DNA of 64,000 nt from contig JAYUZR010000020.1 in assembly GCA_043751595.1 (NCBI GenBank), positions 336 to 64,335 of the forward strand, written 5' to 3'. Shown here piece after piece: positions 11,332-55,206 of this stretch. This DNA is from Candidatus Berkelbacteria bacterium. GTDB lineage: Bacteria; Patescibacteriota; UBA1384; CAILIB01. The notes beneath the pieces were generated by a model. That model did no database searches, was not told the DNA's origin, and saw only the letters and a list, made by a program, of their open reading frames with translations. Each line of letters opens with the position of its first letter. Position 1 is the first letter of the stretch. A program made the translations under genes and the position numbers.

Positions 11332-12003
11332 GTGCCGCCGCTCGCTTCGTTGGCAGCATTCCCCTATCCTTATTTCATGTCTCAAGCCCTCAAGTCTTTC
11401 GACCTTAGCTCAGAGTTATTAGAAAGCGAGCAAGAATACTCCCACCTCCGCATGAGTGGAACGTTTCTTGGAGCCAGCCCTGTAAGCAATGTACAGATTA
11501 GTGATAGCACCTTAGAAAAAGCGGACCTTAGCGCTACGAAGCTCCCCAAGTTACGAGCAATCGATAGTACCGTTACCCAGTCATCACTAGTAGGAACTAA
11601 TCTCTCGGAGTCGTCCCTTAACGCCACCACCTTCACTAACTGCAGGCTAACTGGAACTATCTTCAGTAACGCACTCCTAGATGGCTGCACCTTTAAGGAT
11701 TGCGCCATAAATATGGGACTCTTTAGGTTTTCGTCACTTAAAAAGGTGAAGTTTATTGGTTGCAACCTTCAGAGTTCAGACTTTTTTGAGGCAAAACTAA
11801 AAGAGGTAAGTTTCGAAGCCTGCAATCTTGAGCAGGCCGACTTCTCTCGAGTAATCGGCACAAAAGTAGATTTTAGAAAGTCGAACATTGGCTCTATTCG
11901 TGGTATTTCTGGACTCAAGGGTGCAATAATTTCTTCAGATCAGCTTATTTCTTTAGCGCAATCGTTGGCTTACGAGATTGGAATTATCGTGCAGGACGAC
12001 TAA
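11332..12003 (+). CDS. Pentapeptide-repeat protein (Qnr/MfpA/McbG-like size and architecture)
   Basis: Tandem A(D/N)LxX pentapeptides throughout (ADLSATKL, CRLTGTIFSNALLDGCTFKDC, CNLQSSDFFEAKLKEVSFEACNLEQADFS). The alternative start at 11380 gives 207 aa. Confidence 0.65.
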   Translation: MPPLASLAAFPYPYFMSQALKSFDLSSELLESEQEYSHLRMSGTFLGASPVSNVQISDSTLEKADLSATKLPKLRAIDSTVTQSSLVGTNLSESSLNATTFTNCRLTGTIFSNALLDGCTFKDCAINMGLFRFSSLKKVKFIGCNLQSSDFFEAKLKEVSFEACNLEQADFSRVIGTKVDFRKSNIGSIRGISGLKGAIISSDQLISLAQSLAYEIGIIVQDD

Positions 12004-15543: not shown

Positions 15544-15951
15544 ATGATCAAGTTCAATCCTTACATTTTCTTCCCAGGCAACTGTCGCGAAGCTGCAACC
15601 TTCTACCACGAAGTATTCGGAGGTAGCGTTACTATTCAAACCCTCGGCGAAGCCATTGGCGAAACCGACCCTGCCAAAAAAGACCGTATCATGCATGCCG
15701 ATCTTACTGGTGGCGCAGTAGAGTTTATGGCCAGCGACAGCGACCGAAACGAGCCATATCCACCAAGCTTTATCACCCTCTCTATTGGTGGAGAAGACGA
15801 AACACTTATTACGGCACTCTTCAAAAAGCTAGCCGAAGGTGGCGCAGTTACTTCCGAGCTCAAAAAAGAATACTGGGGAGATACCTTCGGTACCGTTACC
15901 GATAAATTTGGCGTCGATTGGATGGTAAATATTTCTGGACCAAAGGAGTAA
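15544..15951 (+). CDS. VOC-superfamily PhnB/YjdN-like protein
   Basis: FNPYIFFPGNCREAATFYHEVFGG ... DKFGVDWMV. Paralogue of the previous gene. Confidence 0.65.
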   Translation: MIKFNPYIFFPGNCREAATFYHEVFGGSVTIQTLGEAIGETDPAKKDRIMHADLTGGAVEFMASDSDRNEPYPPSFITLSIGGEDETLITALFKKLAEGGAVTSELKKEYWGDTFGTVTDKFGVDWMVNISGPKE

Positions 15952-15968
15952 GCAGTCCCATTCAAGTA

Positions 15969-15999
15969 AAGAAGCCCGGCACTTACGGGCTTCTTTTTA
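15969..15999 (+). terminator. Rho-independent terminator
   Basis: GAAGCCCG-7 nt loop-CGGGCTTC followed by TTTTTATTT. Confidence 0.7.
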
Positions 16000-16017
16000 T
16001 TTCTGTAAAGTTATCTC

Positions 16018-16572
16018 ATGTACGGACCCTCTCTTTCCTCTGGTACCACCAAATCTGGTGCGCACATCACTCTTACCCCTCCTTCTAGCTCACACATAGA
16101 AAAACTTGTTGCGTGGCTAAGTACCGAAGAAGTAATGAAGCACCTTAACCCCGATTGGCAGCCTACTACCGCTGAACAGGAACAAGAAACCCTCAAAACA
16201 TTTGAACAAGCCAAAGATAGTATCCATTGGGACATTGTGGTGGATAGCAAGCCAGTTGGAGCCGCCTGGATTAACGAAATTGATCACACCTTTCAGTGGG
16301 GTTCGTTTGGGCTCCTTATTGGCGAGCAAGATGCCTGGGGAATGGGCATTGGCACCGAGGTTGCTCGAGCCGTATGCGACTACGCCTTCTCCCAGACCAC
16401 TCTTCACTCCATTAAAATTGCTTTCACTAAAGAAAATATTGGTAGTAAAAAGATTGCCGAAAAACTAGGCTTTACCCTTACTCCCGGAGTTGCTCACTTT
16501 ACCGATGGTAAAAGCTATCCAGGGTGGGATGGCGTGCTGTTAAAGCCCATTCCCGACCAGACTAAGGATTAA
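16018..16572 (+). CDS. GNAT family N-acetyltransferase (RimJ/RimL-like)
   Basis: Acetyl-CoA-binding core QWGSFGLLIGEQDAWGMGIGTEVARAV. Confidence 0.7.
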   Translation: MYGPSLSSGTTKSGAHITLTPPSSSHIEKLVAWLSTEEVMKHLNPDWQPTTAEQEQETLKTFEQAKDSIHWDIVVDSKPVGAAWINEIDHTFQWGSFGLLIGEQDAWGMGIGTEVARAVCDYAFSQTTLHSIKIAFTKENIGSKKIAEKLGFTLTPGVAHFTDGKSYPGWDGVLLKPIPDQTKD

Positions 16573-17785: not shown

Positions 17786-18298
17786 ATGAAGAACCTCGCG
17801 ACTATTACCGCCCTTGAAGTATTGGGCGAAAAAGTTACCACACCCACCACGCTTACCGAGCGCCGAGCTGCTCGCGCCGTGATAACCCGCATGGGAGAAG
17901 TCGCGCTTCTTCACATACCTAAGAACGCTTTTTACAAGTTAGCTGGTGGTGGTATTGAAGAAGGTGAGAATATAATCGACGCACTCACCAGAGAAATACG
18001 GGAAGAGACTGGGTTAAGCATAGCGATCGTAGGTGAAGTTGGCATGACAGAAGAAGTAAGAGCTGAATCAGCCCTATGCCAGATTTCATACTGCTACTAT
18101 GGGGAGGTTACTGGAGAAGTAAGCGAAACCACGCTAACAGACTTTGAAAAAGATCAAAATCTCACCTTGGTTTGGGCGAAAGACATCGACGAGGCCATTG
18201 TTCTTGTTGAGCAGTGCAAGCCCGAGAACTATGCCGGCAAGTTTATCCGCTATCGCGATTTATTACTCCTAAAAGAATACCGAGAAATAACCGCCTAA
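17786..18298 (+). CDS. NUDIX hydrolase
   Basis: Nudix box GGGIEEGENIIDALTREIREETG. Start chosen at the internal ATG (MKNLAT) of the 17681 ORF. Confidence 0.7.
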   Translation: MKNLATITALEVLGEKVTTPTTLTERRAARAVITRMGEVALLHIPKNAFYKLAGGGIEEGENIIDALTREIREETGLSIAIVGEVGMTEEVRAESALCQISYCYYGEVTGEVSETTLTDFEKDQNLTLVWAKDIDEAIVLVEQCKPENYAGKFIRYRDLLLLKEYREITA

Positions 18299-19885: not shown

Positions 19886-20530
19886 ATGATCCTCACCCTC
19901 TTCGAACAATCCGGTTTTACCTTAGAAAGTGCAGGCAAAAAGCTAGCCATCGACGTCGGTCGCTTTACGAGCACTGAATCACTTCAAGCCATCGGCAAGC
20001 CAGATTACTCCTTGGTTTCACACATGCATGGGGATCATTTTTATGAAGAGAACCTTACTAGCCTAGCAGCCTCCATCATAACGGTTGCAGAAGTCGCAAG
20101 CCTCATTACCGATACCAACCTCATAGTTACCACCATTACCGAAGGTGAAACTATTACCCTACCTGAAACCCTATTTACGATTACGGCCACCGCAAGTAAC
20201 CATGGCACGGGCATTTCTGCACCAGTAGAAAATATTGGGTTTCTTATTTCAGCAGAAGGAAAAGCTGTGTATTTCTTGGGTGATATGGCTATTAGTACTC
20301 CCCCACCTACGCAAACTTTCAACATTGCCTTAGTCCCAGTAGGGAACCATGGATATGTGTTTACCCCGGAGCAAGCAGCTGAACATATTCAATCAATTGG
20401 ATTCACCGGATTAGTAATTCCAATTCATTACACCAACGGCGATCCAGAATCAGGAAAGATATTTGCCGACCTTATTAAAGCTACAAACCCAGTACAGGCA
20501 TTAGAGATCGGCCAATCAATCCAGCTCTAA
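19886..20530 (+). CDS. MBL-fold metallo-hydrolase
   Basis: HMHGDH (HxHxDH) motif, 214 aa. Confidence 0.7.
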   Translation: MILTLFEQSGFTLESAGKKLAIDVGRFTSTESLQAIGKPDYSLVSHMHGDHFYEENLTSLAASIITVAEVASLITDTNLIVTTITEGETITLPETLFTITATASNHGTGISAPVENIGFLISAEGKAVYFLGDMAISTPPPTQTFNIALVPVGNHGYVFTPEQAAEHIQSIGFTGLVIPIHYTNGDPESGKIFADLIKATNPVQALEIGQSIQL

Positions 20531-21471
20531 CCCGTAAACGTCTGCGCGCTAGCCTTATTATACTCAGGCCGTATCTCAACTCCGCCCGCCTTCACCTCGC
20601 CGTGCAAATCCGAAACATTGGTATCGGCATCAGGCGCCGTAACGGAAAGATGGGTCACTCGCGCCAGCTGCTTACCCACCGGATTCTTACCCTTGCCAGT
20701 TGAGCAGGATACCAGTACGACCGAGGCGTCATCCTCCAGATGAGTTGCCAGTGTTTCTGAAAAAATATCAAAACTACTTTTCTCACCCTCCTCCCCTTCT
20801 TCCTCAAAACCATTCATCGTAACTTCCGGCAGGCCTTCAGGCTCTTCATCAACAGGTTCATCCACCTCCACCCTTCCACCTTCAACATCATCAAAGGTAA
20901 ATCCTTTTTCAGAGCCATGAGCTACCACAATACCGAAGGATGCCTTGCCATACTTAGCAACCAAGGCGGCGGTCAGCTCCGAGGCTTCTTCCGGACTAGA
21001 CGCCTCTACAACCCGTATAGCTGCCTCCTCGCGTAAGTCCTCATGTAAACCAGATAACTGCGGCATATACTCGAGAGCACCGTTACTATCATACTTTGCA
21101 ACAACCACTATCCCCCACGGCTTACCTGTCATATCACCATCGAGCATCTGCTGGAGAACCTCGGAAGGATAGCGATCTGGGAAATCGATATTAAACTCGC
21201 TCTTTAGCCGGGCGGTATCGAGTGGTGCTTCTTGGGTTTTTTGGTTAAACTCCGGAAAATCTTCTCGCAGACCAAGCTTTGGGTCTAACTGATCAAGCTC
21301 ATCCAGAACATCTTGTAGATTACAGCGAGCCGCAAAGATTTCGAGTGCATGCTGAATTAATTCTACTCTTTCCTTTTGCAACGCTACTTCAGGATTACTA
21401 TCCAAAATACTTTCAGCGATATCCCTCGGGGTTACTTCCGCATCTTCTGGGAGTGTGAACTGTTCGTGCAT
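20527..21471 (-). CDS. Acidic hypothetical protein with three internal GIVVxA...G / VVLVSCSTGKG repeat-like segments
   Basis: 314-aa ORF, very acidic (D/E-rich). No recognised family. Confidence 0.5.
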   Translation of the reverse strand: MHEQFTLPEDAEVTPRDIAESILDSNPEVALQKERVELIQHALEIFAARCNLQDVLDELDQLDPKLGLREDFPEFNQKTQEAPLDTARLKSEFNIDFPDRYPSEVLQQMLDGDMTGKPWGIVVVAKYDSNGALEYMPQLSGLHEDLREEAAIRVVEASSPEEASELTAALVAKYGKASFGIVVAHGSEKGFTFDDVEGGRVEVDEPVDEEPEGLPEVTMNGFEEEGEEGEKSSFDIFSETLATHLEDDASVVLVSCSTGKGKNPVGKQLARVTHLSVTAPDADTNVSDLHGEVKAGGVEIRPEYNKASAQTFTG

Positions 21472-21488
21472 AGATACATGCTACCAGC

Positions 21489-22493
21489 TTGGCAATTACT
21501 TGTCGCTTGCGTAGAGTAAGCTCCACTATGTCATTCACTCCCCGCCCCGAAGTCTACGATACGTATTGGTACTTTGCGGCGGAACGGCAAAATACTTTTA
21601 TAAAGCGCCTAAGTGGGGCGAAGGCACCGTACACGCAAGATCCGATTCTGGCGCAGTATAAGTTCTGCAATACGTACCGCGCCCTCGACCGCGAGACACA
21701 GTTTTTAATTCGGGAGGTTATCTATTCAAGTAGCTATTCCCCTCAAGATACGCTGTTTCGGATTATGCTCTTTCGCCTTTTTAACAAACATCAAACTTGG
21801 GTGGCGTTAGAGAAGCTACTGGGCGAAATTAGCCTGACAACCTTTTCTCCGGGAGCCTATAGCGCATTACTCGAAAAGATCCGCGAAGAAGGGCCCATCT
21901 ACGGAAATGCCTTTATTCTTTGCGCTAATAAGGCGTTTGGATTTGATCAAAAACACAATAATCACCTTGCCCTGCTTGAATATACTTTTCTACGCAGTGA
22001 GATGGGTAGAAAGCTAGAAGAGGCAAAAAGCCTCCGTGAGCTCTTTATGGTTTTGCGTGAACTGCCGCTGATTGGCAACTTTATGGCGTATCAAATCGCC
22101 ATAGACATGAATTACTCCGAAGTATTCAACTTTAGCGAGAATGATTTTACGATTGCCGGTCCCGGGGCTGAGCGCGGCATCGCTAAATGCTTTAGCTCTT
22201 ACGAAAAGTCCGATCGCGAGGCAATTATTATGTACATGGTCGAAAACCAAGAAAAAGAGTTCCAGCGGCTAGGGCTCAACTTTGCGCGAATTGGTAATCG
22301 CCCACTGCAAGCCATAGATTGTCAGGGACTCTTTTGTGAAACCGATAAATACTCGAGAGTACGATTTCCAGAATTAGCCAGTAATCGCAAGCAAATAAAA
22401 GCCAGCTTCACCCCAAGCCCAGCACCGATTGAATACTTCTTCCCACCTAAATGGCAGATAGAAGCAATTTGCACCGGGCAACAACTTCTTTAA
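21489..22493 (+). CDS. Conserved hypothetical protein (YWYFAAERQNTF ... QYKFCNTYRALDRETQ motifs); family not recognised
   Basis: 334-aa ORF, likely start at 21528 (MSFTPRPE). Its 3' end overlaps the convergent kinase gene by 47 nt. Confidence 0.55.
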   Translation: MAITCRLRRVSSTMSFTPRPEVYDTYWYFAAERQNTFIKRLSGAKAPYTQDPILAQYKFCNTYRALDRETQFLIREVIYSSSYSPQDTLFRIMLFRLFNKHQTWVALEKLLGEISLTTFSPGAYSALLEKIREEGPIYGNAFILCANKAFGFDQKHNNHLALLEYTFLRSEMGRKLEEAKSLRELFMVLRELPLIGNFMAYQIAIDMNYSEVFNFSENDFTIAGPGAERGIAKCFSSYEKSDREAIIMYMVENQEKEFQRLGLNFARIGNRPLQAIDCQGLFCETDKYSRVRFPELASNRKQIKASFTPSPAPIEYFFPPKWQIEAICTGQQLL

Positions 22494-23016
22494 GACTGGC
22501 ATCTATTTCAGAAAAGTTGGTCGTATCGAGCTCAATTAACTCACCTGCTTGAATGGGCTGAATCCGTCCATCACTCAAAAGAGTGCGAAACTTGCCACTT
22601 GTAATATCGCTTGTTTCCATATGGGCCGGGTGACGCTCTCCGGTATCTATACGATTCTTCACTCGCTCCAATAGCACTTCTGGATCAGCTTTAAGAAGAA
22701 CTTGCAGTACGGTACATGAGTACTTCTTGGACCACGCCCGTACCTTGGGGGTATAAAAACCTGCACCAAAGTTACTCTCAACAATAAAGCTCTGTCCGAT
22801 CTTTAAGTGCTCCTCAATAAGAAAATCTAGGATAGCGTATGTGGCGCGACCAACTTTTTGTGACTCTTCTCTATCTGCCACACCAAGCTCATCCGCTAGT
22901 CGCTCTTTAATATCGTCCTTGTTAAGACAGAGGAGATTGAGCTCAGCAGCAAGGCGGCGGCTAAAGCTTGTTTTGCCTGTGCCAGAATGGCCGGTGACGA
23001 TAACTAATAAACTCAT
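22447..23016 (-). CDS. Small P-loop kinase (AAA_33/zeta-toxin/CPT-like nucleotide or small-molecule kinase)
   Basis: Walker A GHSGTGKTS, 189 aa. Overlaps the upstream NUDIX gene by 4 nt. Confidence 0.6.
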   Translation of the reverse strand: MSLLVIVTGHSGTGKTSFSRRLAAELNLLCLNKDDIKERLADELGVADREESQKVGRATYAILDFLIEEHLKIGQSFIVESNFGAGFYTPKVRAWSKKYSCTVLQVLLKADPEVLLERVKNRIDTGERHPAHMETSDITSGKFRTLLSDGRIQPIQAGELIELDTTNFSEIDASLKEVVARCKLLLSAI

Positions 23017-23414
23017 AGCAATGCGTCCTTCAGTGCGAGTGGCCTGAGATCAATTTCTTGAATACTCGAAAGGCTAATCCACTCTACTCGATAAAAATCT
23101 TCTGTCGTTTGTTTTTCTTCTTCCTGCCACATTGCCCTATCAGGCAACACTCCTTCAGCTAAGGTGGCCCAAAAGAAGTATTGGATCCTGCCGTCTGACT
23201 CATGAAGCTCAGTAAGAGGTTCCCCGATTTCTACTACAACCCCAGCCTCTTCAAGTAATTCACGCTCAGCTGCCTGCTGTGGTGTTTCGCCAGGATCTAT
23301 TCCGCCTCCAGGGGCAATATAGTACTCACCACGCTCATTCTTGCGATACACCAACAAGATAGCGTCTTCATGGCGAACAAGGGCAACTGCTCGGTGGCGT
23401 GGGGATTGATTCAT
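23013..23414 (-). CDS. NUDIX hydrolase
   Basis: Nudix box GGGIDPGETPQQAAERELLEEAG. Confidence 0.8.
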   Translation of the reverse strand: MNQSPRHRAVALVRHEDAILLVYRKNERGEYYIAPGGGIDPGETPQQAAERELLEEAGVVVEIGEPLTELHESDGRIQYFFWATLAEGVLPDRAMWQEEEKQTTEDFYRVEWISLSSIQEIDLRPLALKDALL

Positions 23415-23703: not shown

Positions 23704-24285
23704 TTAGCCAACTAACAGCTTCCGCAACTCTTCCTTCTTTTCTTGACTATATAGCGCATGAATCGCCATGCGCGCCAGCATTCCATCTCGCTCAGCCGAA
23801 GCTTCATCAGCCAGAAAGGAAATAAGCTCATCAAAAGAAAGGGTGGTTAACGCAATCTTTTCGCCTGCATCTAGCGATTGCTCTGCCACCTTTTTAGGAT
23901 TGCGAGCGGCAAAGGTATACACCGACCACTCAATCTTACTTATTGGCTGAAGGGCATCGATTAAGATCCATTCTTCGGCCTCTAACCCTGCTTCTTCGAG
24001 CAATTCTCGCTTGGCCGCAACCAGAGGATCTTCCCCCGCCTCTACTCGTCCACCAATAAAGCCGGTAAATGGCGCCTTACCTGGCTGTTCTTCGTGTACT
24101 AGTGTTACGGTGCCGTCCACATCAACCGGAATGACTAAGACGGTACTTGAGCGAGTAAGCTTTTCAAAAATAGCCGTGGTACCGTTGTATTGCTCTTGCT
24201 CCCACTGGTAGACATCAAACACCTTACCTTCAAATACTTTTTGAGCGTGAGCAGGTAGTGGTTGTTTTGAGGGAGGAATCGTCAT
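23704..24285 (-). CDS. NUDIX hydrolase (ADP-ribose pyrophosphatase-like)
   Basis: Nudix box GGRVEAGEDPLVAAKRELLEEAG. Confidence 0.8.
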   Translation of the reverse strand: MTIPPSKQPLPAHAQKVFEGKVFDVYQWEQEQYNGTTAIFEKLTRSSTVLVIPVDVDGTVTLVHEEQPGKAPFTGFIGGRVEAGEDPLVAAKRELLEEAGLEAEEWILIDALQPISKIEWSVYTFAARNPKKVAEQSLDAGEKIALTTLSFDELISFLADEASAERDGMLARMAIHALYSQEKKEELRKLLVG

Positions 24286-31139: not shown

Positions 31140-32233
31140 GAAGAAAACGATTCATAACCCTCGATCTATTAAGGGGCTTTCTTCTCATTGCCGTCTGCGT
31201 TAATCACGCACAGCGCACACCCGGAATCTTAGAGTACCTCACCGGTGGTGGGGTACTCTGGGTTTCGGGGGCAGAGCTTTTCTTTATTCTTTCCGGATTC
31301 ACGTTTAGCTATGTGCGAAAAAAGACCTTAGCCGAAAAAGGCTTTGGTGAAGTACTGAAGAAAAGCTTAACCCGCGCACTCGGCATCTACGTTCTTACTA
31401 TCATCGCAAGTTGTATCACCCTTCTCATTGCCGATGCCGTAGATTGCCAAGTTGGCATCCGAAACGGAGGAGCGTCGGTCTGCAGTACGCTTACTTGGCA
31501 AGCTTTTAGTGATGTTGCCACTCTACAAAAAACCGTTTACTGGGTGGCGATGCTTGGCTATTACACGCTCTATGTAGCGCTCGCCCCATTGGCATTACTG
31601 CTTTTGCAGCGGAAGGCATGGTACATCCTTCTCACCATTTCCACCGGCATCTTCCTCCTTCGCGATCAGTCACCCATCCTTATTTACCAGCTCCTCTTCA
31701 GCCTAGGCCTTATCCTTGGCTGGTATTTTAGACCGCTCCTTGCACCAAGTAAAAAGGCAACCTATCTCCTAACACTGGCTGGTTTCTGGAGCCTTATTAC
31801 CTATGCGCTTAGCCTCGCACTAAACGAAGGCACCCTCGCCCGAGCCATGCCGCAGGCGCACCGTTGGTATCAAACCTTTTGGGCACCGTATTTTGATCGC
31901 ACTGAAATGGACTTCCCCAGGCTTGCCATGGCCGTCCTGTGGTTTCTAAGCCTATTCTACTTTTTCACTAGGTTCGAGCAGCCAATTAACCGAGCCCTGG
32001 GCTGGCTTCTTCTTCCTTTTGGGCGAGACTCGCTCTGGACCTTCGCATTACATGCGCCACTTGTCTTTGCTCTCAATATTTTTATTGTTTTTGATAATGC
32101 TGGGAGAATTAGCAATACCCTGCAATCAGTTGTAATTATTGCCGTTCTTTATTTGTTAGTATGGATAAAGAACCAGATCAGCCAACTCATAAACCATGCA
32201 TACCAGTCTCGAAGAATTACGATTGAAGCTTAA
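31133..32233 (+). CDS. Acyltransferase-3/OpgC-like integral membrane protein
   Basis: N-terminal FITLDLLRGFLLIAVCVNH and a 10-TM profile. Overlaps nrdB by 7 nt. Confidence 0.55.
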   Translation: MVGRKRFITLDLLRGFLLIAVCVNHAQRTPGILEYLTGGGVLWVSGAELFFILSGFTFSYVRKKTLAEKGFGEVLKKSLTRALGIYVLTIIASCITLLIADAVDCQVGIRNGGASVCSTLTWQAFSDVATLQKTVYWVAMLGYYTLYVALAPLALLLLQRKAWYILLTISTGIFLLRDQSPILIYQLLFSLGLILGWYFRPLLAPSKKATYLLTLAGFWSLITYALSLALNEGTLARAMPQAHRWYQTFWAPYFDRTEMDFPRLAMAVLWFLSLFYFFTRFEQPINRALGWLLLPFGRDSLWTFALHAPLVFALNIFIVFDNAGRISNTLQSVVIIAVLYLLVWIKNQISQLINHAYQSRRITIEA

Positions 32234-32453
32234 TGAAGCAGCTCAAAGCATAGAAATTGGTGGGCACTATATGCATTACAAAACTCCCACAACCACGTAC
32301 GAGGTTAAGGAGTTAGTAATTAACGAAGCAGACGAACAACTACTTGTTCTGTATTTTCCCGTAGTTAGTCCGGAGACTGTTTTTGCCCGCCCTCTCACAA
32401 GCTGGCTTGAAGAAGTTGGTCCTGGCGTACGTCGGTTTAGGACGCTTCAATAA
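32196..32453 (+). CDS. DUF1653 domain protein
   Basis: [35 protein letters not shown]...[13 protein letters not shown] fits the PF07866 consensus. Overlaps the upstream gene by 38 nt; start uncertain. Confidence 0.5.
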
Positions 32454-33378
32454 AATTGAGCGCCAGCGAGTTCATGCAGTAGCGAAGGCCAGTTGGCTCG
32501 GGGCCATCATTAAAGACATGACCCAAGTGGGACTGACAACGACCACAAACTACTTCGTCGCGAACCATGCCGTGCGAAGTATCGCCCTCAAGCGCGATGG
32601 CATCTGGAGAAGCGGTCTGCCAAAAGCTAGGCCAGCCGGTGCCGGAATCAAACTTTTCTTCTGAATTAAATAGTAGCTGACCACAAGCACCACAGAAGTA
32701 CTGGCCCTCTTCGTGATTATCCCAGTACTCGTTGCGGAAGGCAGGCTCAGTACCATGCCCACGCAGTACTTCGAACTTCTCGGGACTCAGTACTTCTTGC
32801 CACTCTTCTGGGGTTTGGGGTAGGGGTTCGCGTAAATATGACATAGGAGGTGTAGTGCGGAGAAAAGCTTGGTGCTTTGTCCGTAGTTTAGAAAGTTTAG
32901 GAACGATCACTACATTGCAGTAGCCCATACTCGGGTTACGAGCATAGTACTGCTGATGTGATTCTTCCGCCGGATAAAATGGGACTACTTCTTCAAGTAC
33001 CGTAACGAGAGGATCTGGATAGGCCTCTGTAAGCTCAGTCATAACCTGCTCAGCAACCGCCAGCTGCTCTTCGGTTCCAAAGATACACGAGCGATATTCA
33101 ATTCCCACATCGGCCCCCTGGCGGTTAAGCGAGGTCGGATCGTGAGTAGTAAAAAATACCTCGAGTATATCGTGCAGACTAATAACCTCAGCATCAAAGA
33201 TAAGCTCGAGCACTTCGGCGTGCGTATTGCCGGCGCTATGCAGGTCTCGGTAGGTTGGGAACTCTTTTTGTCCGCCAGCATAGCCGCAAAGGGTATGGAG
33301 CACTCCATTAATCTGACTAAAAACTGCTTCGGTGCACCAGAAGCACCCGCCACCAAGAATAATTCGTTCAGGCTTCAT
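32437..33378 (-). CDS. msrAB: Bifunctional peptide methionine sulfoxide reductase, MsrA-MsrB fusion
   Basis: N-terminal GGGCFWC (MsrA), C-terminal CGACG...GWPSF...[17 protein letters not shown] (MsrB). Confidence 0.9.
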
Positions 33379-34052: not shown

Positions 34053-35006
34053 ATGATTGTCGTCACCTCATACCCCACTCCCGATCTCGATGGTGTTGCC
34101 TGCAGCATTGCCTACGCCGAGCTTCTCCAGGCTCAAAACCGGCCAGCGCAAGCCTTCATTGAAGGAGCCCCTCATCTGGTGGCCCAGCACATTCTTGCTA
34201 AGGCAGGTCTTTCCTTCCAAGATTTTGAGCACCTACCAAACGAGATCTCAGAAGTCTTTTACACCGACGATTCTTTCATCGATTCCGTCCCTGTTGCCAT
34301 CGATCCCTATCAAATTACCGAAATCGTAGATCATCATTCCGATGGTCGCCCGGAAGAGTTTCCCAATCTTGTTACTATTCAAAATGAAGAAGTTGGCGCG
34401 GCGGCCACCCTTATTGCCGAAAAGTTTAAAGCAGGCGGCGTGGACCCAACTAAGGCCAGCGCATTACTGCTATACGGCGCCATTATCGATAACTCGCTCA
34501 ACTTCTCAACCAGCAACACCAGCGATCGAGATAGAGAAATGGCTACCTGGCTTCGTCAGCTCCACCAGCTTTCCTCCGAAGACGAACTAGCCAGCGAAAT
34601 CTTTACTACCCGAAGCGAGCTTACCGATTCAGAAATAGTGCAGTGCTTAATTGAAGATAACTTCCCTATTAAAGGGCTCGCCGAAGGCTACTCGCTAGCG
34701 GTTGGCCAGCTTGAAATCTCATTTGAGCATTCCGGCATACTAGAGAAGGGCGCCTTACTCGCTCGCGCAACCAAGGGCATTGCCTCGCGCTACGATTGCA
34801 AGCAAAGTGCCGCCATCTTAGTTGATCTAAGCGCCGATAGATCGCACATCATTACCCTCACTCCAGAGCTTGCCCGTCTCTTTGCCAATGCCATTGAGGG
34901 ATCAAATTTGCTCGATGCCTGCCAGCTAGAACTGCCACACAGAATGCAGCGAAAAACAATTGTCCCCCTCTTCCGCAGCCACCTTGAGCACATCTTCAGT
35001 GCATAA
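34053..35006 (+). CDS. ppaC: DHH-family phosphoesterase, Mn-dependent inorganic pyrophosphatase (family II)-like
   Basis: N-terminal SYPTPDLDGVACSIAYAELL, DHH motif EIVDHHSDG, and a DHHA2-type C-terminal region. 317 aa. Confidence 0.6.
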   Translation: MIVVTSYPTPDLDGVACSIAYAELLQAQNRPAQAFIEGAPHLVAQHILAKAGLSFQDFEHLPNEISEVFYTDDSFIDSVPVAIDPYQITEIVDHHSDGRPEEFPNLVTIQNEEVGAAATLIAEKFKAGGVDPTKASALLLYGAIIDNSLNFSTSNTSDRDREMATWLRQLHQLSSEDELASEIFTTRSELTDSEIVQCLIEDNFPIKGLAEGYSLAVGQLEISFEHSGILEKGALLARATKGIASRYDCKQSAAILVDLSADRSHIITLTPELARLFANAIEGSNLLDACQLELPHRMQRKTIVPLFRSHLEHIFSA

Positions 35007-35046
35007 ACGGCGCCAGCTTTTTCTCCTCCTCTTTTTTGTGCTGAGC

Positions 35047-35526
35047 TGGATGACGGTAGGGTATGATATTCCCTTTCTCTACACTACCGTTCCACCCCAG
35101 CTCTGGCCTTTCATCGCCGTCTGCCCGCTGTATCCCCCGCTCCTGGCTCGCTACCTACTAAAAGGCAACCGCAAAGAAGATGCCGCCGATACCATTGGCC
35201 TTCTTGGTTGTGCAGTATATGGCATCTTAAGCATTGCCTACTACACCATCCAGCCCTTCTTTCCCCTCCTTGTTCTTTCTATGATCTGGGTAGCAGGCTA
35301 CGGTACACTTGCCCTTTTCTCGCGACCTATCCAATCACTCAGACTACGATTACTGGCCTTACTCTGGATTTTCGCCGCACTCAGCGCGCAGTATCTTACC
35401 AACACCTTTGGCTATTTTGATTTTAGCCAGTTACCCGCAGGGGCTATCGGCTGGTTTTACGTCGCCGGAATTATCTTGGCCGTAGCACTTACCCTGGCAC
35501 CCTACCGACGAACCATCGTTCGGTGA
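35047..35526 (+). CDS. Hypothetical membrane protein
   Basis: Hydrophobic ORF. The start is uncertain: the ORF opens at 34960 inside ppaC. Confidence 0.4.
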   Translation, partial: WMTVGYDIPFLYTTVPPQLWPFIAVCPLYPPLLARYLLKGNRKEDAADTIGLLGCAVYGILSIAYYTIQPFFPLLVLSMIWVAGYGTLALFSRPIQSLRLRLLALLWIFAALSAQYLTNTFGYFDFSQLPAGAIGWFYVAGIILAVALTLAPYRRTIVR

Positions 35527-36251
35527 GCCACCTTCTTCTCCACTGCCTCGGCTAGTAAATCTTTGTATTCCATCTCACTTGGGGCAATTTTAAGCGCCTT
35601 TTTAAACGAAGATTCAGCCTTGGCATATTGGCGCATTGCCAAATACGCCATCCCAAGATTAGCGTGACGAGAAGCATTGGCTTCATCTAACCGCACCGAT
35701 TGCTCGAAGACGCGCACTGCCTCGGCAAACTTATCTTGATGATACAAAACTAAGCCTAAGTTATTAAGCAGATTGCCGTTATCGGGATCGGTCTTCAGCG
35801 CCTGGCGAAAAGCAGCTTCGGCGTCGGTATAATCTTCGCCCAGCTCGAGATAGATGACACCAAGACGAGCATAGGCCTTACTGCAACGCGGATCTTCAGC
35901 CGCAATTTTTACATAGGATTCTTCGGCGGCCTTATATTCACCCTTTCTAAAATGAGCATCGGCTTCGTCCATTAGCTTTTGCAGAGGCTCGGGCAACGAA
36001 GGGGTTTTTGGCTCAACAGGATCGTTATACCTTGCCTGGGTATGCAGCGGATCTGGAAGCGAGCGCATCGGAACATCTTCCATAAAATCTTTCATCGATT
36101 GCTTAGCCGCTGAGCGGGGCTGAGCTGGAGCTTTTTCTTTCTTAATACGAGGCTCTCCCCTACCACTGAAAAGGCGCGCGCGAACTTCTTGCCAATCTAT
36201 AAAAAGACTAACAAGGATAAGAACGAGAAGTGCGACAACGTAGGGAAGCAT
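35502..36251 (-). CDS. Tetratricopeptide-repeat protein with N-terminal TM anchor
   Basis: Several TPR units (AYARLGVIYLELGEDYTDAEAAFRQALKTDPDNGN...). Confidence 0.7.
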   Translation of the reverse strand: MLPYVVALLVLILVSLFIDWQEVRARLFSGRGEPRIKKEKAPAQPRSAAKQSMKDFMEDVPMRSLPDPLHTQARYNDPVEPKTPSLPEPLQKLMDEADAHFRKGEYKAAEESYVKIAAEDPRCSKAYARLGVIYLELGEDYTDAEAAFRQALKTDPDNGNLLNNLGLVLYHQDKFAEAVRVFEQSVRLDEANASRHANLGMAYLAMRQYAKAESSFKKALKIAPSEMEYKDLLAEAVEKKVAHRTMVRR

Positions 36252-38392: not shown

Positions 38393-39013
38393 ATGAACCT
38401 GCTTTCTCTTCTTATCTCCTCCCCCATTACCGCGCTCAGCGCAATTCTCTGCTTAGTGGCTGCTCTTACCGTGCACGAATGGGCTCACGCCTGGGTAGCG
38501 TATAAGCTAGGCGACGATACTCCGTATTATGATGGCCGGGTTACGCTTAATCCTCTCGCGCATCTTGATCCTCTAGGCACGATTGCCTTCCTCATTTTTA
38601 GCTTTGGCTGGGGTAAGCCCGTACTCATTAACCCAAATAACTTTAAGCGCCGAAGCGATGAATTATTAGTTGCGTTGGCGGGGCCAGCCAGTAATCTTGT
38701 TTTTGCCCTCCTTCTCAATCTTCTTGCCTTTGCGGTTGGAGGCATCTTTGGAGAACTCCTAAGACTAGCCTCACTTATTAATGTAAGTCTGGCCGCCTTT
38801 AATATCCTGCCAATTCCCCCATTGGATGGCTCGAGCATTATCGATATCTTTTTCCCTGGCTATAAGCAGTTGGGCGGAAGCTTGCCAGCTCTCATCGGCC
38901 TACTCATTCTCATCAACTTACCGATTGGCGATACCACCCTTATTCGGTATCTAATGAACCCGGTTATCCACCTATTTTCCTACCTTACCACTCTTGGCTG
39001 GCACCTTTCGTAG
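38393..39013 (+). CDS. Site-2 protease family (M50) zinc metalloprotease
   Basis: HEWAHAW (the HExxH motif), TLNPLAHLDPLGT and a multi-TM profile. Confidence 0.75.
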   Translation: MNLLSLLISSPITALSAILCLVAALTVHEWAHAWVAYKLGDDTPYYDGRVTLNPLAHLDPLGTIAFLIFSFGWGKPVLINPNNFKRRSDELLVALAGPASNLVFALLLNLLAFAVGGIFGELLRLASLINVSLAAFNILPIPPLDGSSIIDIFFPGYKQLGGSLPALIGLLILINLPIGDTTLIRYLMNPVIHLFSYLTTLGWHLS

Positions 39014-39586
39014 ATCGTACACGTACATACGCTTCTGCCAGCTGGTAAGCTCAATAGTTTCAGTGGGCTCTAGCCCTTCAATCGCAAAAGTAAGAGAAAG
39101 TACTAGGCAGTTATCCAGCTTCTTCTCGGTGTACAGCTTGGTAATAAGCTGCGGAAATAAATAGCAATACACTACTCCAGGAGGCGCATAATCTACCTTA
39201 AAAAGATCGGCGTATACCCAGGTAACCGCCGTTTTAGTACGTGCCAACATAAAGCGGATCTTACCAGCCACTAAAATTGCTGGCCCGATCTCGATTGCCA
39301 CAACTTGCTTCCATTTGTAGGCTGCCGCTAAGTAGTAGGCCACAATTCCCATTCCTGCCCCTGGTTCATATAACGTATACTTGGCAATTTCTTGCTCCTC
39401 TCCTACGTATTTCTCCAGCACTTTCTTTACCACTTTCCCTTGCTCTTTAATGTTTGAGCCATGGTACAGCACGCGATCTTTTTTAGAGCTCTGCTGGGTT
39501 TCAAATAAAAAGGCCAAGTACCACAAAATCACCACTCCGATAACTACCTGGAGAAAAACCGCCAATCCCTGAAGAAAGGTAACCAT
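38972..39586 (-). CDS. Class I SAM-dependent methyltransferase with N-terminal TM
   Basis: Motif I YEPGAGMG. Confidence 0.6.
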   Translation of the reverse strand: MVTFLQGLAVFLQVVIGVVILWYLAFLFETQQSSKKDRVLYHGSNIKEQGKVVKKVLEKYVGEEQEIAKYTLYEPGAGMGIVAYYLAAAYKWKQVVAIEIGPAILVAGKIRFMLARTKTAVTWVYADLFKVDYAPPGVVYCYLFPQLITKLYTEKKLDNCLVLSLTFAIEGLEPTETIELTSWQKRMYVYDLRKVPAKSGKVGK

Positions 39587-49017: not shown

Positions 49018-49300
49018 GAATCAGTTTATCTCACCCTCATTCCTTGTTCTTTCCGCCTTAGTCGACGGCGATAAGCATGGCTACGCCATCATGCAGTGGG
49101 TCGCTGCTAAAACCGAGGACAGCATTCACCTCGGCCCTGCCAGTCTCTACACCACTATCCGCAAACTTGAGCATTCAGGACTCATCTGCGAAGTCCCTGA
49201 TTCTGACCCGAAGCGCCGAACCTACCACTGCACCGATCTTGGCCAAAGCACGCTTGAGCAAGAGATGAAAACTGCCTTACTTCTTTTTAAGGCATCATGA
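49016..49300 (+). CDS. PadR family transcriptional regulator
   Basis: GYAIMQ...LYTTIRKLEHSGLI...RRTYHCTDLG winged-helix motifs. Confidence 0.75.
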   Translation: MNQFISPSFLVLSALVDGDKHGYAIMQWVAAKTEDSIHLGPASLYTTIRKLEHSGLICEVPDSDPKRRTYHCTDLGQSTLEQEMKTALLLFKAS

Positions 49301-51003
49301 AATCAACTGATCTTACCCAGCAAAAAGAGCGCTCATTAAAAACACTTAGTTTTTTGGTCGGCCTCTACCCCCTCGCTTTTCAGGAACGACACGGGGAAGA
49401 AATGAAAGAGCACTACCACCAGACTATTTCTCAGGCGGCCAAGCACGGCGATAGCCTTATTCTTAGCGAACACTTCTTGGGCCTGCTCCTAGAACTTCCC
49501 GCCAGCCTTAGTACTGAGTGGTGGCATCACCTAGTATATAAAACCACTAGTACGCAAGAACGAGTCGCCATCAGTATCGAGTACAGCAAAAAGCCGAGCC
49601 TTGTCTGGGCAATTCTTGCCTGCATCTACTTTTATATCGGTCCGCAACTTTCTTCATTCACCTACTTTTTAGCCTTTCCTGGAGTGGATAGCGCTTCTAC
49701 CTTAGTATTTTGGCTACCGATTGTTATTTGGTGGATATCGCTCGGAGTGGCAACCTTCCGGTTTACCAAAAGGCTTTTCATTGGCTTTTTGGCACTCATT
49801 CCTCTTCCACTTATTCTTCTGGGGTATAGCACCCTCTTCCCGGTTGGAATCTATGGGTTTTTGGATGATAGCTTCTTCGCCCTGGCGTTTATCATTCAAT
49901 ACTTTTCCGTTTTCTTCATTTTTAAACACCCGGAACGGTTTAAGCGTAAAGACCTAAGTGCAGTAAGTGCGAAAGACAGTGAAAGCTACACTACCTTTAC
50001 AAAAACCCGAAGAAACCGCCGACTGATTACCTTTGGAGTTGTATTTGGCTTGATACTATTTGCCAATGGGATCGCCTATGGCGTAGATCAGGCCGTAGAG
50101 GTCACTCCAATCGAGCCACTGCTTATGTACGGTGCTGGGCAGTCTAGGATGTACTTAATGACTTCCATTGAGGATATTGCACCTAAGGATCGTGGTGAAA
50201 AGATTACTGACTACATCAATAGTCCTGCCGCTCTCCCAGTTCCGCAAGATGTACAGAAAGAAGTTAGCACTCGGTATGTCTCATCTAAAAAGGCACTGGA
50301 GATTCTAGATAGCGTCGCCCTGCGCTCATGGGACTTTGACCCTACAATCTCAATGGAACGCCCAAATGACTTTGCCGCTACTCTCTCAATGCAAGTTGTC
50401 TCATTGCATGGATTAGCCACCAATAACGCAGAAGATATTCACCTAGTCTTTTCTTGTCTTCAAAAGTACCTTTCTGCCCAGGGCAAGCTTGAGTTCGATT
50501 ACTTTTCTGGGACTAAACTCCTAGCCCGGCAGCTTGAGCAGTACCAGCTTATTTCAGCAAGTTTTACCCAAGAAGAACGCCAAGAAATAGTGGCGATTCT
50601 CACCAAGTTGCCCGATCTTCACCGAGCCTACTCCGCCGCCATTGCCCACGAATATCAGGTGCAAACTACGTGGGATTCTACTCTCGACTTTTACAAAACC
50701 CTGCGCTACATGCCGTATGTATTTATGCCAAATACCACTCATGCACGAGCGGCAAAGTTTTTTAAAGCAGCACAAGAGCGAATGCTAGCAGCGTGCACAC
50801 CAGAAGATGCGGTGGCACAGTTATCGATTCAAGATGGAAGTGGCTTCATGGAGTATAAGGTCTCAACCATTTTGACTCCAAATTCAATTGGAAACTGGAT
50901 GACAAGTGACCGAGTTCCCCCTTCGGCTGATACCTACCGGATTAACGGCAAGCGCAACTTATGTAGGGCGGAGGCAAAGTTAAACGAGGTACTTAAGAGT
51001 TAA
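49297..51003 (+). CDS. PadR-associated multi-TM membrane protein (hypothetical)
   Basis: 568 aa, 4-nt overlap with padR. Central hydrophobic block. Confidence 0.55.
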   Translation: MKSTDLTQQKERSLKTLSFLVGLYPLAFQERHGEEMKEHYHQTISQAAKHGDSLILSEHFLGLLLELPASLSTEWWHHLVYKTTSTQERVAISIEYSKKPSLVWAILACIYFYIGPQLSSFTYFLAFPGVDSASTLVFWLPIVIWWISLGVATFRFTKRLFIGFLALIPLPLILLGYSTLFPVGIYGFLDDSFFALAFIIQYFSVFFIFKHPERFKRKDLSAVSAKDSESYTTFTKTRRNRRLITFGVVFGLILFANGIAYGVDQAVEVTPIEPLLMYGAGQSRMYLMTSIEDIAPKDRGEKITDYINSPAALPVPQDVQKEVSTRYVSSKKALEILDSVALRSWDFDPTISMERPNDFAATLSMQVVSLHGLATNNAEDIHLVFSCLQKYLSAQGKLEFDYFSGTKLLARQLEQYQLISASFTQEERQEIVAILTKLPDLHRAYSAAIAHEYQVQTTWDSTLDFYKTLRYMPYVFMPNTTHARAAKFFKAAQERMLAACTPEDAVAQLSIQDGSGFMEYKVSTILTPNSIGNWMTSDRVPPSADTYRINGKRNLCRAEAKLNEVLKS

Positions 51004-51991
51004 GCAGCCTTCTCAGTGCCTCAAGCCGTTGCTCATAATACCCCCTAAAAACTCCCTCTTCGCGGCGTAATAACTCAGCGCCAGTACCCAACCGCTCGCG
51101 CTCAAGGTTGCCGAGCGACCAAACAAGATCGGCAATTCTGGAGCCTAGATCGTGAACAGTGATCCTCGCTTGCAAATAGGGATCTGCATGACGCTCCTCA
51201 TACGCCGCGAGAAAGCCCTCTTTAAACTCGGAACTAACATGATTAACCGTAAAGAGAAACGATAACTCAGCCGCAGGGTCACCATACTCCGACTCACTCC
51301 AATCGATGAAGGTAATACCCTGGTCGTGCCACAGCACGTTCCCGGGATTGGGGTCGCCGTGTAGGAGTGCAAAGGAAGAGCCTGCAAAGGCTCTAGCATT
51401 CTGCTGAATATGCTCTTCATACCTAGTAATAGCACGATTCAACAACTGAGCCGCCTCAGAGTAATGCTCCAGATTAACCTTACCTAGAGGAGTTATCACC
51501 CAGGTTTGGTGCGCTGCCTTAGCCGCATCTAAGTAGGTTCCTTCTTGGTGCGGAGTACCGGGAGACGGAGAAAAGGTAGGGCTACGTTGAGCGTGAATAT
51601 CGGCCAGCACTCCAGCTAAGGCCTGTACATGCTCCTTAGGCATGGCATCGTATGAGCGGTGCTCACCTGGGATAAACTCCATCAACAAAAAGGAACCTGG
51701 AAGAAAGTCAGGATTACCGAGATGGTACACTCTGGGAGCCAGTACACCATCTAGAACCTTAAGCCTTGTATGCTCATGCACGATCACATCCACCCCATCC
51801 TCTTGAGGGGTTGGATAAAACCGCAGTACGTGCGAAGGGCGCTCATCACCTTTGAAGTGGACTGAGTAGTTTACATTGTGATGCCCACCACTTAGCCGAT
51901 TAAGTTGGAACGGCGCATGGGTATCGCGTCCGAAAACGGAAGGATGAAGTCCAGAAAGATGATCAGAGAGCTGAGTGAGGAGTTCGGACAT
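50993..51991 (-). CDS. Aminoglycoside-phosphotransferase (APH)/protein-kinase-like phosphotransferase
   Basis: LLHGDPNPGNVLW (the HGDxxxxN motif) and IDWSESEYGD. Start moved to MSELLTQL. Confidence 0.65.
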   Translation of the reverse strand: MSELLTQLSDHLSGLHPSVFGRDTHAPFQLNRLSGGHHNVNYSVHFKGDERPSHVLRFYPTPQEDGVDVIVHEHTRLKVLDGVLAPRVYHLGNPDFLPGSFLLMEFIPGEHRSYDAMPKEHVQALAGVLADIHAQRSPTFSPSPGTPHQEGTYLDAAKAAHQTWVITPLGKVNLEHYSEAAQLLNRAITRYEEHIQQNARAFAGSSFALLHGDPNPGNVLWHDQGITFIDWSESEYGDPAAELSFLFTVNHVSSEFKEGFLAAYEERHADPYLQARITVHDLGSRIADLVWSLGNLERERLGTGAELLRREEGVFRGYYEQRLEALRRLLNS

Positions 51992-52127
51992 ACTGACAGG
52001 ATAGCAAATACTAGAGACGACTTCACTAGATGCAACCCAATAAAACCTGTAATACTTGCACCATGCACACACCCTCTTACGAAATTGAGGCGAATTACGT
52101 GGCACCAAACTAATAAGTAGTATCGAA

Positions 52128-52703
52128 ATGGAAGAAGCACCAAACAAACTTGGAGAAGTCTTATTTGAAAATCGCACCATCTCGAGAAAGAGCAACGAAC
52201 TCCTACTTCAATACATCGCAATCACCGCATTTAGCGGACTCTTTGGCTTAGTATTCTCAGCGATAGTTGGCAGTAATTACTTGATTACAGGCCTCATTAC
52301 TATTTCGCCAATACTAGCGCTCGCACTGTATCAAAAACTCAGTGGAGGTTTTCGTACTTTCATTCTCTACGAGAAGGCCATTATTGACCTGCCCTCCGGC
52401 ACCATGACCACCGTTGATCGCATCACTGAGGTTCAGGTTTCTGTAGTTGCTGGTAGTAACTACAAAGTCCATATCATTACCGATACCGGTCGTGCTTCCT
52501 ATCCCTTGTATTGGGCGGGTGTTGATCCATTACAATCTGATGCCCTACAACAAAACCCTGGCTTAAAAAAGTTTGAAGTAGCACTAGAAAAACTTGGGTT
52601 TACCAAAGAGCCCTTTTATAGTTCGAGCGAAGCCGCACTAAGTCGGGTAACCCTTTTCCTCCTTAATCGTAAGGTTGTATATCGGTATAGACGGACCAAA
52701 TAA
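52128..52703 (+). CDS. Hypothetical membrane protein
   Basis: ORF with two TM. No recognised motif. Confidence 0.45.
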   Translation: MEEAPNKLGEVLFENRTISRKSNELLLQYIAITAFSGLFGLVFSAIVGSNYLITGLITISPILALALYQKLSGGFRTFILYEKAIIDLPSGTMTTVDRITEVQVSVVAGSNYKVHIITDTGRASYPLYWAGVDPLQSDALQQNPGLKKFEVALEKLGFTKEPFYSSSEAALSRVTLFLLNRKVVYRYRRTK

Positions 52704-55129: not shown

Positions 55130-55206
55130 TGGTCGGGGAAAGAGGATTTGAACCTCCGATCTCCGGACCCCCAGCCCGGCGCACTAGGCCACTATGCTAT
55201 TCCCCG
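55130..55206 (-). tRNA. tRNA-Pro, anticodon GGG
   Basis: Reverse complement folds: acceptor CGGGGAA/TTCCCCG, D-stem GCAT/GTGC, anticodon stem CCGGG/TCCGG with loop CTGGGGG (G37), T-arm GGAGG-TTCAAAT-CCTCT, CCA encoded. Confidence 0.8.

Follow-up and report, generated by a model that had tools for sequence, protein, structure and literature searches.

A stand-alone HMUDK_hel gene beside a convergent kinase-NUDIX gene pair in a Berkelbacteria chromosome: one system or two units?

Do three tightly packed genes on a contig of a Candidatus Berkelbacteria bacterium (JAYUZR010000020.1) form one small system? The window, i.e. the whole stretch of 64,000 nucleotides (nt) that was analysed, holds a forward-strand gene that runs tail to tail into a P-loop kinase gene, which in turn is joined to an upstream NUDIX gene on its own strand. 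A sequence-only reading, made before any database search, regarded the first product as an unfamiliar protein of 334 amino acids (aa) and the trio as a candidate undescribed system. The three open reading frames (ORFs), the motifs quoted for them, the 47-nt convergent overlap, and the 4-nt ATGA junction were all confirmed in the sequence.

The locus probably contains, with a probability of roughly 0.6, two unrelated units that meet tail to tail within a compact chromosome like those of the candidate phyla radiation (CPR). The first unit would be a stand-alone HMUDK_hel protein without the partners that accompany it in phages and in defence, namely a thymidylate synthase (TS)-like hydroxymethylase, a 5-hydroxymethyldeoxyuridine (5-hmdU) kinase, an amino-acid:DNA-transferase (AADT), Nmad, and TIR. 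The second would be a NUDIX-then-kinase bicistron on the opposite strand, which encodes a Nudix pyrophosphohydrolase and a P-loop kinase of the family of Protein Data Bank (PDB) entry 2RHM. Since the usual partners are missing, the HMUDK_hel protein would act alone or with unlinked partners. We infer that the two units are independent of each other, and the kinase and NUDIX neighbours are most likely a gene pair unrelated to HMUDK_hel. A dedicated three-gene system is not supported. The kinase and the NUDIX protein are non-homologous to the partners of the family, lie on the opposite strand, and are unique to this species.

The HMUDK_hel protein: family, start codon, and fold

The product of the forward-strand gene matches Pfam family PF18723 (HMUDK_hel) with an E-value of 1.3e-100 (336.8 bits; cutoff 25) over positions 2-280 of the 281 positions of the profile, and a public protein of 321 aa is 100% identical to it. 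Identity is 24% with gp55 of phage M6 (E 1e-17) and 29% with the product of the third gene (340 aa) of DS-4, an anti-phage system of Escherichia coli (E 7e-28). The closest protein in the phage-record collection, at 36% identity, is that of Brevibacterium phage LuckyBarnes (L002:840-4855). In an alignment of phage and cellular members, which included the proteins of M6, phiMAM1, SirVictor, and LuckyBarnes, 20 of the 20 family-wide invariant residues are kept in the window protein; those present include R20, FxN48xxR51xxD54, G183xF185, D193, AGPG213, G217, and CE271xxKYxR277. As judged by these matches, the window protein is a full-length new member of a catalogued, biochemically uncharacterised family. 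Its relatives number in the thousands: more than 3,700 clusters at 90% identity were found at E < 1e-5, and a scan of 1.84 billion cluster representatives gave 4,106 at E < 1e-3 and 399 at E < 1e-30. The description of the protein as unfamiliar or undescribed was therefore not upheld.

No mention of PF18723 or of MazG_C was found in the literature searched. Experiments with phage proteins showed that M6 gp54 alone is an active 5-hmdU DNA kinase, that the kinase domain of Bacillus phage SP10 gp186 alone (a C-terminal deletion) phosphorylates 5-hydroxymethyluracil (5-hmU) DNA, and that M6 gp55 is dispensable for glycinyl-thymidine synthesis in vitro (PMC8989533). In the experiments so far, neither the kinase step nor the transferase step has thus required HMUDK_hel in vitro. 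In the M6 genome, the gene order is gp54, gp55, and then the Nmad5 gene.

The 334-aa call identified a real gene, as the Pfam match indicates, and its start is better placed downstream. The ATG at 21528 is used by the public gene call and by all homologues and gives 321 aa. The TTG at 21489, with which the 334-aa ORF begins, is the first base of a promoter-like pattern, TTGGCA-17-TAGAGT, of which two sites were found versus 3.7 expected in shuffles; this weak indication agrees with ATG 21528. It is most likely, from the homologues and the public call, that the gene starts at this ATG and that its product has 321 aa. The two motifs first quoted for the protein, YWYFAAERQNTF and QYKFCNTYRALDRETQ, are both present in the 334-aa translation, as is GHSGTGKTS in that of the kinase.

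A model of the window protein was built with AlphaFold2 from 30 homologues and compared by Foldseek with BFVD and PDB. It is all-alpha, with a pLDDT of 88 and a pTM of 0.88. The top match in BFVD, where both models are predicted, was the SP10 5-hmdU DNA kinase F8WQ30 (the helical domain of gp186; TMq 0.79, E 7e-14), followed by other HMUDK_hel proteins, by aGPT-Pplase1 (TM-score 0.62-0.67, E 2e-8 to 6e-5), and, further down, by AADT-domain proteins (TM-score 0.47-0.52). The top match in PDB was the 5-phosphomethyldeoxyuridine (5-PmdU) glycinyltransferase of phage PaMx11 (8Z2N; probability 0.99, E 0.03, TM-score 0.40-0.43), and weak matches were obtained with archaeal Ogg, MutY, and OGG1 (E about 1) and with the queuine-salvage glycosylase QNG1. 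A sequence profile of the window protein found no relative among solved structures. On the evidence of the model, the fold is closest to that of the aGPT-Pplase/AADT enzymes and, more distantly, to that of the helix-hairpin-helix (HhH) DNA glycosylases.

It had been suggested that the locus belongs to DNA-base or nucleotide-modification biology with a glycosylase-like fold, and on this point PF18723 membership and the structural matches agree. The suggested fold holds at the level of the aGPT-Pplase/AADT superfamily; classical HhH glycosylases are matched weakly. These enzymes take up a thymine derivative in a pocket by flipping it (PMC11472151). By analogy, the 321-aa protein may bind a uracil or thymine nucleotide modified at C5, most likely after this has flipped out of DNA, in a pocket that would be built from FxNxxRxxD, GxFxAYQxxxD, AGPGxxxG, and CExxKYxR; it is from the fold relatives that base flipping and the class of substrate are predicted.

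Neighbourhoods of the HMUDK_hel clade and the kinase-NUDIX pair

When one genome per species was scanned with an exact pattern, at least 228 genomes proved to carry a homologue of the window protein, and the best 80 of these, with identities of 52-65%, provided the cellular loci considered here. They belong to Patescibacteria (Saccharibacteria, Microgenomates, Woesebacteria, and others) and to metagenome-assembled genomes (MAGs) of small-genome gut Bacilli and Clostridia. Homologues of this stand-alone clade are 52-68% identical to the window protein over their full length, with 79 invariant columns. The 80 loci were examined by ORF calling, BLAST clustering, phmmer, a hidden Markov model (HMM) of the kinase family, and regular expressions for the Walker A motif and the Nudix box, and Pfam was run on 105 neighbours of 19 Patescibacteria loci.

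When the ORFs of the 80 loci were clustered, the window kinase and NUDIX protein remained singletons. The kinase-family HMM gave two marginal matches (11.8 and 16.7 bits) among 885 neighbour ORFs. The Nudix-box pattern occurred in nine ORFs of these loci, and within two genes of HMUDK_hel in the window only. A NUDIX gene upstream of a Saccharibacteria homologue (L173) was rejected as an orthologue of the window NUDIX, its box being degenerate. A 2RHM-type kinase or an adjacent NUDIX gene is therefore found in none of the 80 loci, and, viewed from the other side, neither NUDIX nor HMUDK_hel was found near the kinase homologue in any of five loci. The trio is not conserved, an outcome that the sequence-only reading had itself named as speaking against its proposal. 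Among the 105 Patescibacteria neighbours, GroEL/ES, enolase, and tRNA synthetases were found, together with AAA_18 in three and guanylate kinase in two cases; no dominant partner family was seen, and the gene contexts were variable and mostly of a housekeeping kind.

One partner does recur in the clade. In 22 of the 80 loci, a radical SAM gene with a SPASM domain (~335 aa) lies directly 5' of HMUDK_hel on the same strand, separated by 0-12 nt or overlapping in most of them. All 22 are gut Bacilli or Clostridia MAGs (L072:3251-4255, L024, L027, L047, and L053 among them), and the window contains no homologue of this gene. A radical SAM enzyme works in the thymidine-hypermodification cluster of phage M6 too. 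As a separate observation, a gene with a metallo-beta-lactamase (MBL) fold (Lactamase_B_3) lies within three genes of HMUDK_hel in seven loci, including the window (19886-20530, forward strand); this recurrence (L016, L022, L030, L050, L077, and L036) mostly represents one syntenic block, with two to three independent occurrences.

The known partners were searched for in the window by tblastn, with queries from M6, LuckyBarnes, and DS-4 that included TS, gp54, gp51, and Nmad5. None of TS, HMUD1 kinase, AADT, Nmad5, TIR, Nmad2, MazG, and DUF1643 was found in the 64 kb, and no DS-4 partner family is present among the precomputed Pfam matches within 6 kb on either side. A pentapeptide-repeat match at 11452-11889 was dismissed as repeat noise.

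The classes first given to the other two products, an AAA_33/Zeta/CPT-like P-loop kinase and a NUDIX protein, proved correct; the best Pfam match of the kinase is AAA_33 (E 1e-15, 58.7 bits). A profile of 19 kinase homologues aligned with 2RHM, a 'putative kinase', at E 3.7e-63 over positions 1-186 of 188. The next matches were the kinase domain of Pnkp (E 6e-9) and then PSTK. The motifs GERHPxH and DTT are invariant in the kinase family, and G(E/A)RHPGH and DTT are also found in the 2RHM alignment. By this profile, the 189-aa kinase is a member of the 2RHM family. It had no Pfam match at E <= 0.01 to the 5-hmdU DNA kinase families PF18748 (HMUDK_HMUD1), PF18747, and PF18751, and BLASTP against M6 gp54 aligned 17 residues, which cover the P-loop only. 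Homology to the partner kinases of the family (M6 gp54, SirVictor gp56, the DS-4 kinase, and the Tmk-like fusion domains) was rejected, as the P-loop alone aligns.

The five kinase-homologue loci have unrelated gene contexts. In three of them (L088, L092, and L180), a GNAT acetyltransferase gene lies within 4 kb of the kinase, and L180 has a glyoxalase/VOC gene as well. Since kinase homologues sit among GNAT- and glyoxalase-type genes, a role of the kinase in small-molecule, perhaps xenobiotic, metabolism is suggested. The window has glyoxalase and GNAT genes at 15544-16572, about 6 kb upstream of the kinase.

The NUDIX gene matches Pfam NUDIX at E 1.9e-17, and the Nudix box GX5EX7REUXEEXGU corresponds to GGIDPGE-TPQQAAE-RELLEEAGV in its product. 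The ATGA at 23013-23016 is common to the NUDIX stop and the kinase start (4 nt); judged by this junction, the upstream NUDIX gene is translationally coupled to the kinase gene. A second NUDIX protein of 193 aa, encoded further upstream, matches Pfam NUDIX at E 5.9e-15 and the NCBIfam NudE model at E 7e-14, under the curated cutoff of the latter. Altogether, three distantly related NUDIX genes lie in 6.6 kb (17786-18298, 23013-23414, and 23704-24285), and the 133-aa and 193-aa proteins are alike in the Nudix box only.

TAA at 22491-22493 terminates the forward-strand HMUDK_hel gene and TAG at 22447-22449 the reverse-strand kinase gene, and public contigs that encode an identical protein carry the same three gene calls (Table 1). 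An antisense coupling of the two genes through their 3' ends had been proposed. However, overlaps are general in the window, where six of 17 convergent pairs (by 4, 11, 17, 25, 42, and 47 nt) and 17 of 42 co-directional pairs overlap at a coding density of about 94%. Because overlaps are so common, and because no terminator-like element or special structure was seen in the overlap itself, the 47-nt overlap is put down to the compaction of the genome and the idea of antisense regulation was rejected. Other convergent pairs that overlap, by 11-42 nt, lie at 32196-33378, 34960-36251, 38393-39586, and 49297-52195.

Table 1. Features of the three-gene locus and its immediate context (positions within the window)
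Feature	Position	Strand	Details
HMUDK_hel (PF18723) gene, stand-alone	21528..22493	+	321 aa, ATG start; Pfam match and public 100%-identical protein
Longest ORF of the HMUDK_hel gene	21489..22493	+	334 aa, TTG start; mechanical ORF call
Promoter-like TTGGCA-17-TAGAGT	21489..21517	+	Consensus match; 10 nt 5' of ATG 21528
P-loop kinase gene, PDB 2RHM family	22447..23016	-	189 aa; Pfam AAA_33, Walker A GHSGTGKT
NUDIX hydrolase gene	23013..23414	-	133 aa; Nudix box GGGIDPGETPQQAAERELLEEAGV, Pfam NUDIX
Convergent 3' overlap of HMUDK_hel and kinase genes	22447..22493		47 nt
Second NUDIX gene, NudE-like	23704..24285	-	193 aa; upstream on the kinase strand; regarded as context

Besides tRNA genes, the wider window encodes an ABC transporter, a pilin-like protein, and a ribonucleotide reductase that has an ATP-cone domain. 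The tRNA genes form a cluster at 168-1011 (Thr-GGT, Thr-TGT, Tyr-GTA, and Trp-CCA), with tRNA-Pro-GGG at 55130-55206, and no other Rfam family reached the gathering score in the window. Divergent from the HMUDK_hel gene lies a gene for a strongly acidic protein of 314 aa (20527-21471, reverse strand), which is without a homologue in the 80 related loci and matched nothing in Pfam, NCBIfam, PHROGs, or PADLOC.

One system or two units

The strongest alternative to two unrelated units, although an improbable one, is that HMUDK_hel, the kinase, and the NUDIX protein act together on one modified pyrimidine nucleotide or DNA base, with the Tmk-like or HMUD1 kinase and MazG of other members replaced by non-homologous analogues. 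The wider family gives this idea its substance. A survey of the 150 best cluster representatives, which are 36-55% identical to the window protein, found an N-terminal Tmk-like kinase fused to HMUDK_hel in 16, C-terminal MazG + MazG_C in four, and TS-like, GT1, and HMUD1 kinase fusions in one each. In 80 viral contigs, a TS homologue is the commonest neighbour (adjacent in 19 and within three genes in ~31 of ~69), and a P-loop kinase lies within three genes of HMUDK_hel in ~20. Kinase-then-HMUDK_hel gene pairs are present in M6, in Microbacterium phage SirVictor, and in DS-4; in phage phiMAM1, an annotated nucleoside triphosphate (NTP) pyrophosphohydrolase gene lies directly upstream of HMUDK_hel; and a cyanobacterial relative (L179:6001-8803; 54% identical) is followed downstream by a DUF1643 gene and then a MazG_C (PF18722) gene. 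Taken together, these gene arrangements indicate that HMUDK_hel has three kinds of partner across the family: P-loop kinases, NTP pyrophosphohydrolases, and TS-like enzymes. Consistent with a joint function are also the small P-loop proteins encoded no more than two genes away from HMUDK_hel in the further CPR loci L007 and L015, as well as the fact that the nearest characterised relatives of the window kinase, as represented by Pnkp, are polynucleotide kinases.

The kinase plus pyrophosphatase logic that had first been proposed for the locus thus fits the fusions and neighbours of the family, though the two genes found here are non-homologous to the family partners, the window kinase and the known partner kinases having the P-loop alone in common. 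Moreover, the genes are convergent and therefore not co-transcribed, the 80 cellular loci and the five kinase-homologue loci do not repeat the arrangement, and no TS-like hydroxymethylase that would supply 5-hmU was found in the window. The local richness in NUDIX genes also raises the likelihood of adjacency by chance. Nor does HMUDK_hel appear to be tied to kinases specifically, because LuckyBarnes lacks a nearby kinase and a metagenomic relative has a GT1-HMUDK_hel fusion. In LuckyBarnes, a TS-like gene (517 aa) and two genes for glycosyltransferases precede the HMUDK_hel gene, and none of the annotated genes nearby encodes a kinase. Several of the Tmk-like-HMUDK_hel fusions (P0270-P0344) have a degenerate Walker A motif (e.g. 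EGPSHAGRT, EGRDEARRT, and DGPYPEANA), and in part of this fusion group the kinase domain may, by its sequence, be inactive.

Two considerations weigh against the view of two unrelated units. HMUDK_hel is repeatedly fused or adjacent to just these classes of enzyme, kinase and pyrophosphohydrolase, so that the adjacent kinase and NUDIX genes could be non-orthologous replacements rather than chance neighbours. In addition, the predicted base flipping is drawn from the fold alone, for which the TM-scores in PDB are modest, and HMUDK_hel is biochemically uncharacterised everywhere.

A further alternative, with little likelihood, is that the HMUDK_hel gene is decaying and functionless, left over from a DS-4-like defence system or from a hypermodification cluster of a prophage. 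The fusion protein P0270 (L176:3845-5512), 50% identical to the window protein, is encoded in a defence island, by an operon of the order TIR-Nmad2-[Tmk-HMUDK_hel]-TS that is, from its gene content, a DS-4-type system. Three genes upstream of HMUDK_hel, an Amesbacteria locus (L025:2451-3185) keeps a gene for Nmad2 (Pfam E 6e-43), the only DS-4-type partner detected by tblastn in the 80 cellular loci, and the 228 or more species-level genomes of the exact-pattern scan can also be read in favour of such an origin. However, the window gene is intact and retains every family-invariant residue, the degree of full-length identity and the number of invariant columns in the clade imply purifying selection on the stand-alone form, and the tight radical SAM coupling in the 22 gut Bacillota loci does not suggest decay.

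It is very unlikely that a zeta-toxin-like kinase poisons a nucleotide-sugar pool while the NUDIX protein hydrolyses the product, since, although the kinase scores above the cutoff for Zeta_toxin (30.7 versus 22.3 bits) and the ATGA coupling puts the putative antidote first, AAA_33 outscores this partial match (positions 18-147 of 199), the true kinase family is that of 2RHM, whose members in the five loci have no NUDIX or small upstream antitoxin gene, and PADLOC gave weak and generic matches only, without defence or toxin-antitoxin support or any mobile-element context being seen in the window.

Two unrelated units therefore remain the preferred reading, and on present evidence the trio should be neither annotated nor pursued as a single system. 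What is most interesting in the locus is the stand-alone clade itself, with its radical SAM/SPASM coupling. HMUDK_hel accompanies phage thymidine-hypermodification clusters and one validated anti-phage system, and a strongly conserved clade in CPR bacteria and reduced gut Bacillota from which the usual partners are removed could be the simplest setting in which to learn the role of the domain. It is conceivable, though rather doubtful, that proteins of this clade are self-sufficient enzymes whose target is a modified pyrimidine of DNA or of the nucleotide pool; they could act on 5-hmU-type bases, either like a glycosylase or as sanitising enzymes, or could carry out one step of a host-DNA modification that has so far escaped recognition. 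If true, this would give the HMUDK_hel domain its first biochemical function. In a narrower version, HMUDK_hel could work here with the adjacent 2RHM-type kinase and NUDIX protein, which would be the counterparts by analogy of Tmk and MazG in the fusions.

Comparison with known systems

The kinase-NUDIX pair does not resemble a Zeta toxin/epsilon antitoxin pair: the Zeta match is partial, the upstream gene encodes a NUDIX protein, and the kinase homologues have no conserved partner. The kinase family aligns end to end with 2RHM, which itself is annotated only as a putative kinase; among characterised proteins Pnkp and PSTK are nearest, with the likeness to Pnkp at superfamily level only. With the 5-hmdU DNA kinases it shares a length of about 190 aa, the P-loop fold, and an HMUDK_hel neighbour. 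In those systems, however, the kinase gene is on the same strand and comes first, whereas the window kinase gene is convergent and only its Walker A motif aligns with M6 gp54.

DS-4 ('NTTI') is a validated five-gene E. coli anti-phage system found with DefensePredictor, in which TS, a P-loop kinase (dNMP-kinase-like), HMUDK_hel, TIR, and Nmad2 follow in this order (PMC13092281 supplement). The window protein resembles its stand-alone HMUDK_hel protein. Unlike DS-4, the window has no TS, TIR, or Nmad2, and its kinase is convergent and non-homologous to the DS-4 kinase; the surroundings consist of chromosomal housekeeping and accessory genes rather than a defence island, and neither tblastn, Pfam within 6 kb, nor PADLOC detected a DS-4 operon.

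In phage hypermodification clusters, HMUDK_hel is adjoined by a TS-like dUMP hydroxymethylase, a 5-hmdU DNA kinase, and AADT or Nmad, none of which occurs in the 64-kb window, and the combination of a TS homologue, a 5-hmdU DNA kinase, and aGPT-Pplase2/AADT was likewise not found there. The aGPT-Pplase/AADT enzymes (e.g. PaMx11 gp46, 8Z2N) and the HhH DNA glycosylases share a two-lobed all-alpha fold with the model of the window protein, although it has no sequence-level match to any solved structure, the TM-score to 8Z2N, as given above, is low, and the matches to Ogg, MutY, and OGG1 are weak. The closest likeness is to the phage HMUDK_hel proteins themselves (M6 gp55 and others), with which the window protein shares full-length family membership, the invariant motifs, and the predicted fold; in M6, SirVictor, LuckyBarnes, and phiMAM1, as in the window, HMUDK_hel is a separate protein of about 320 aa.

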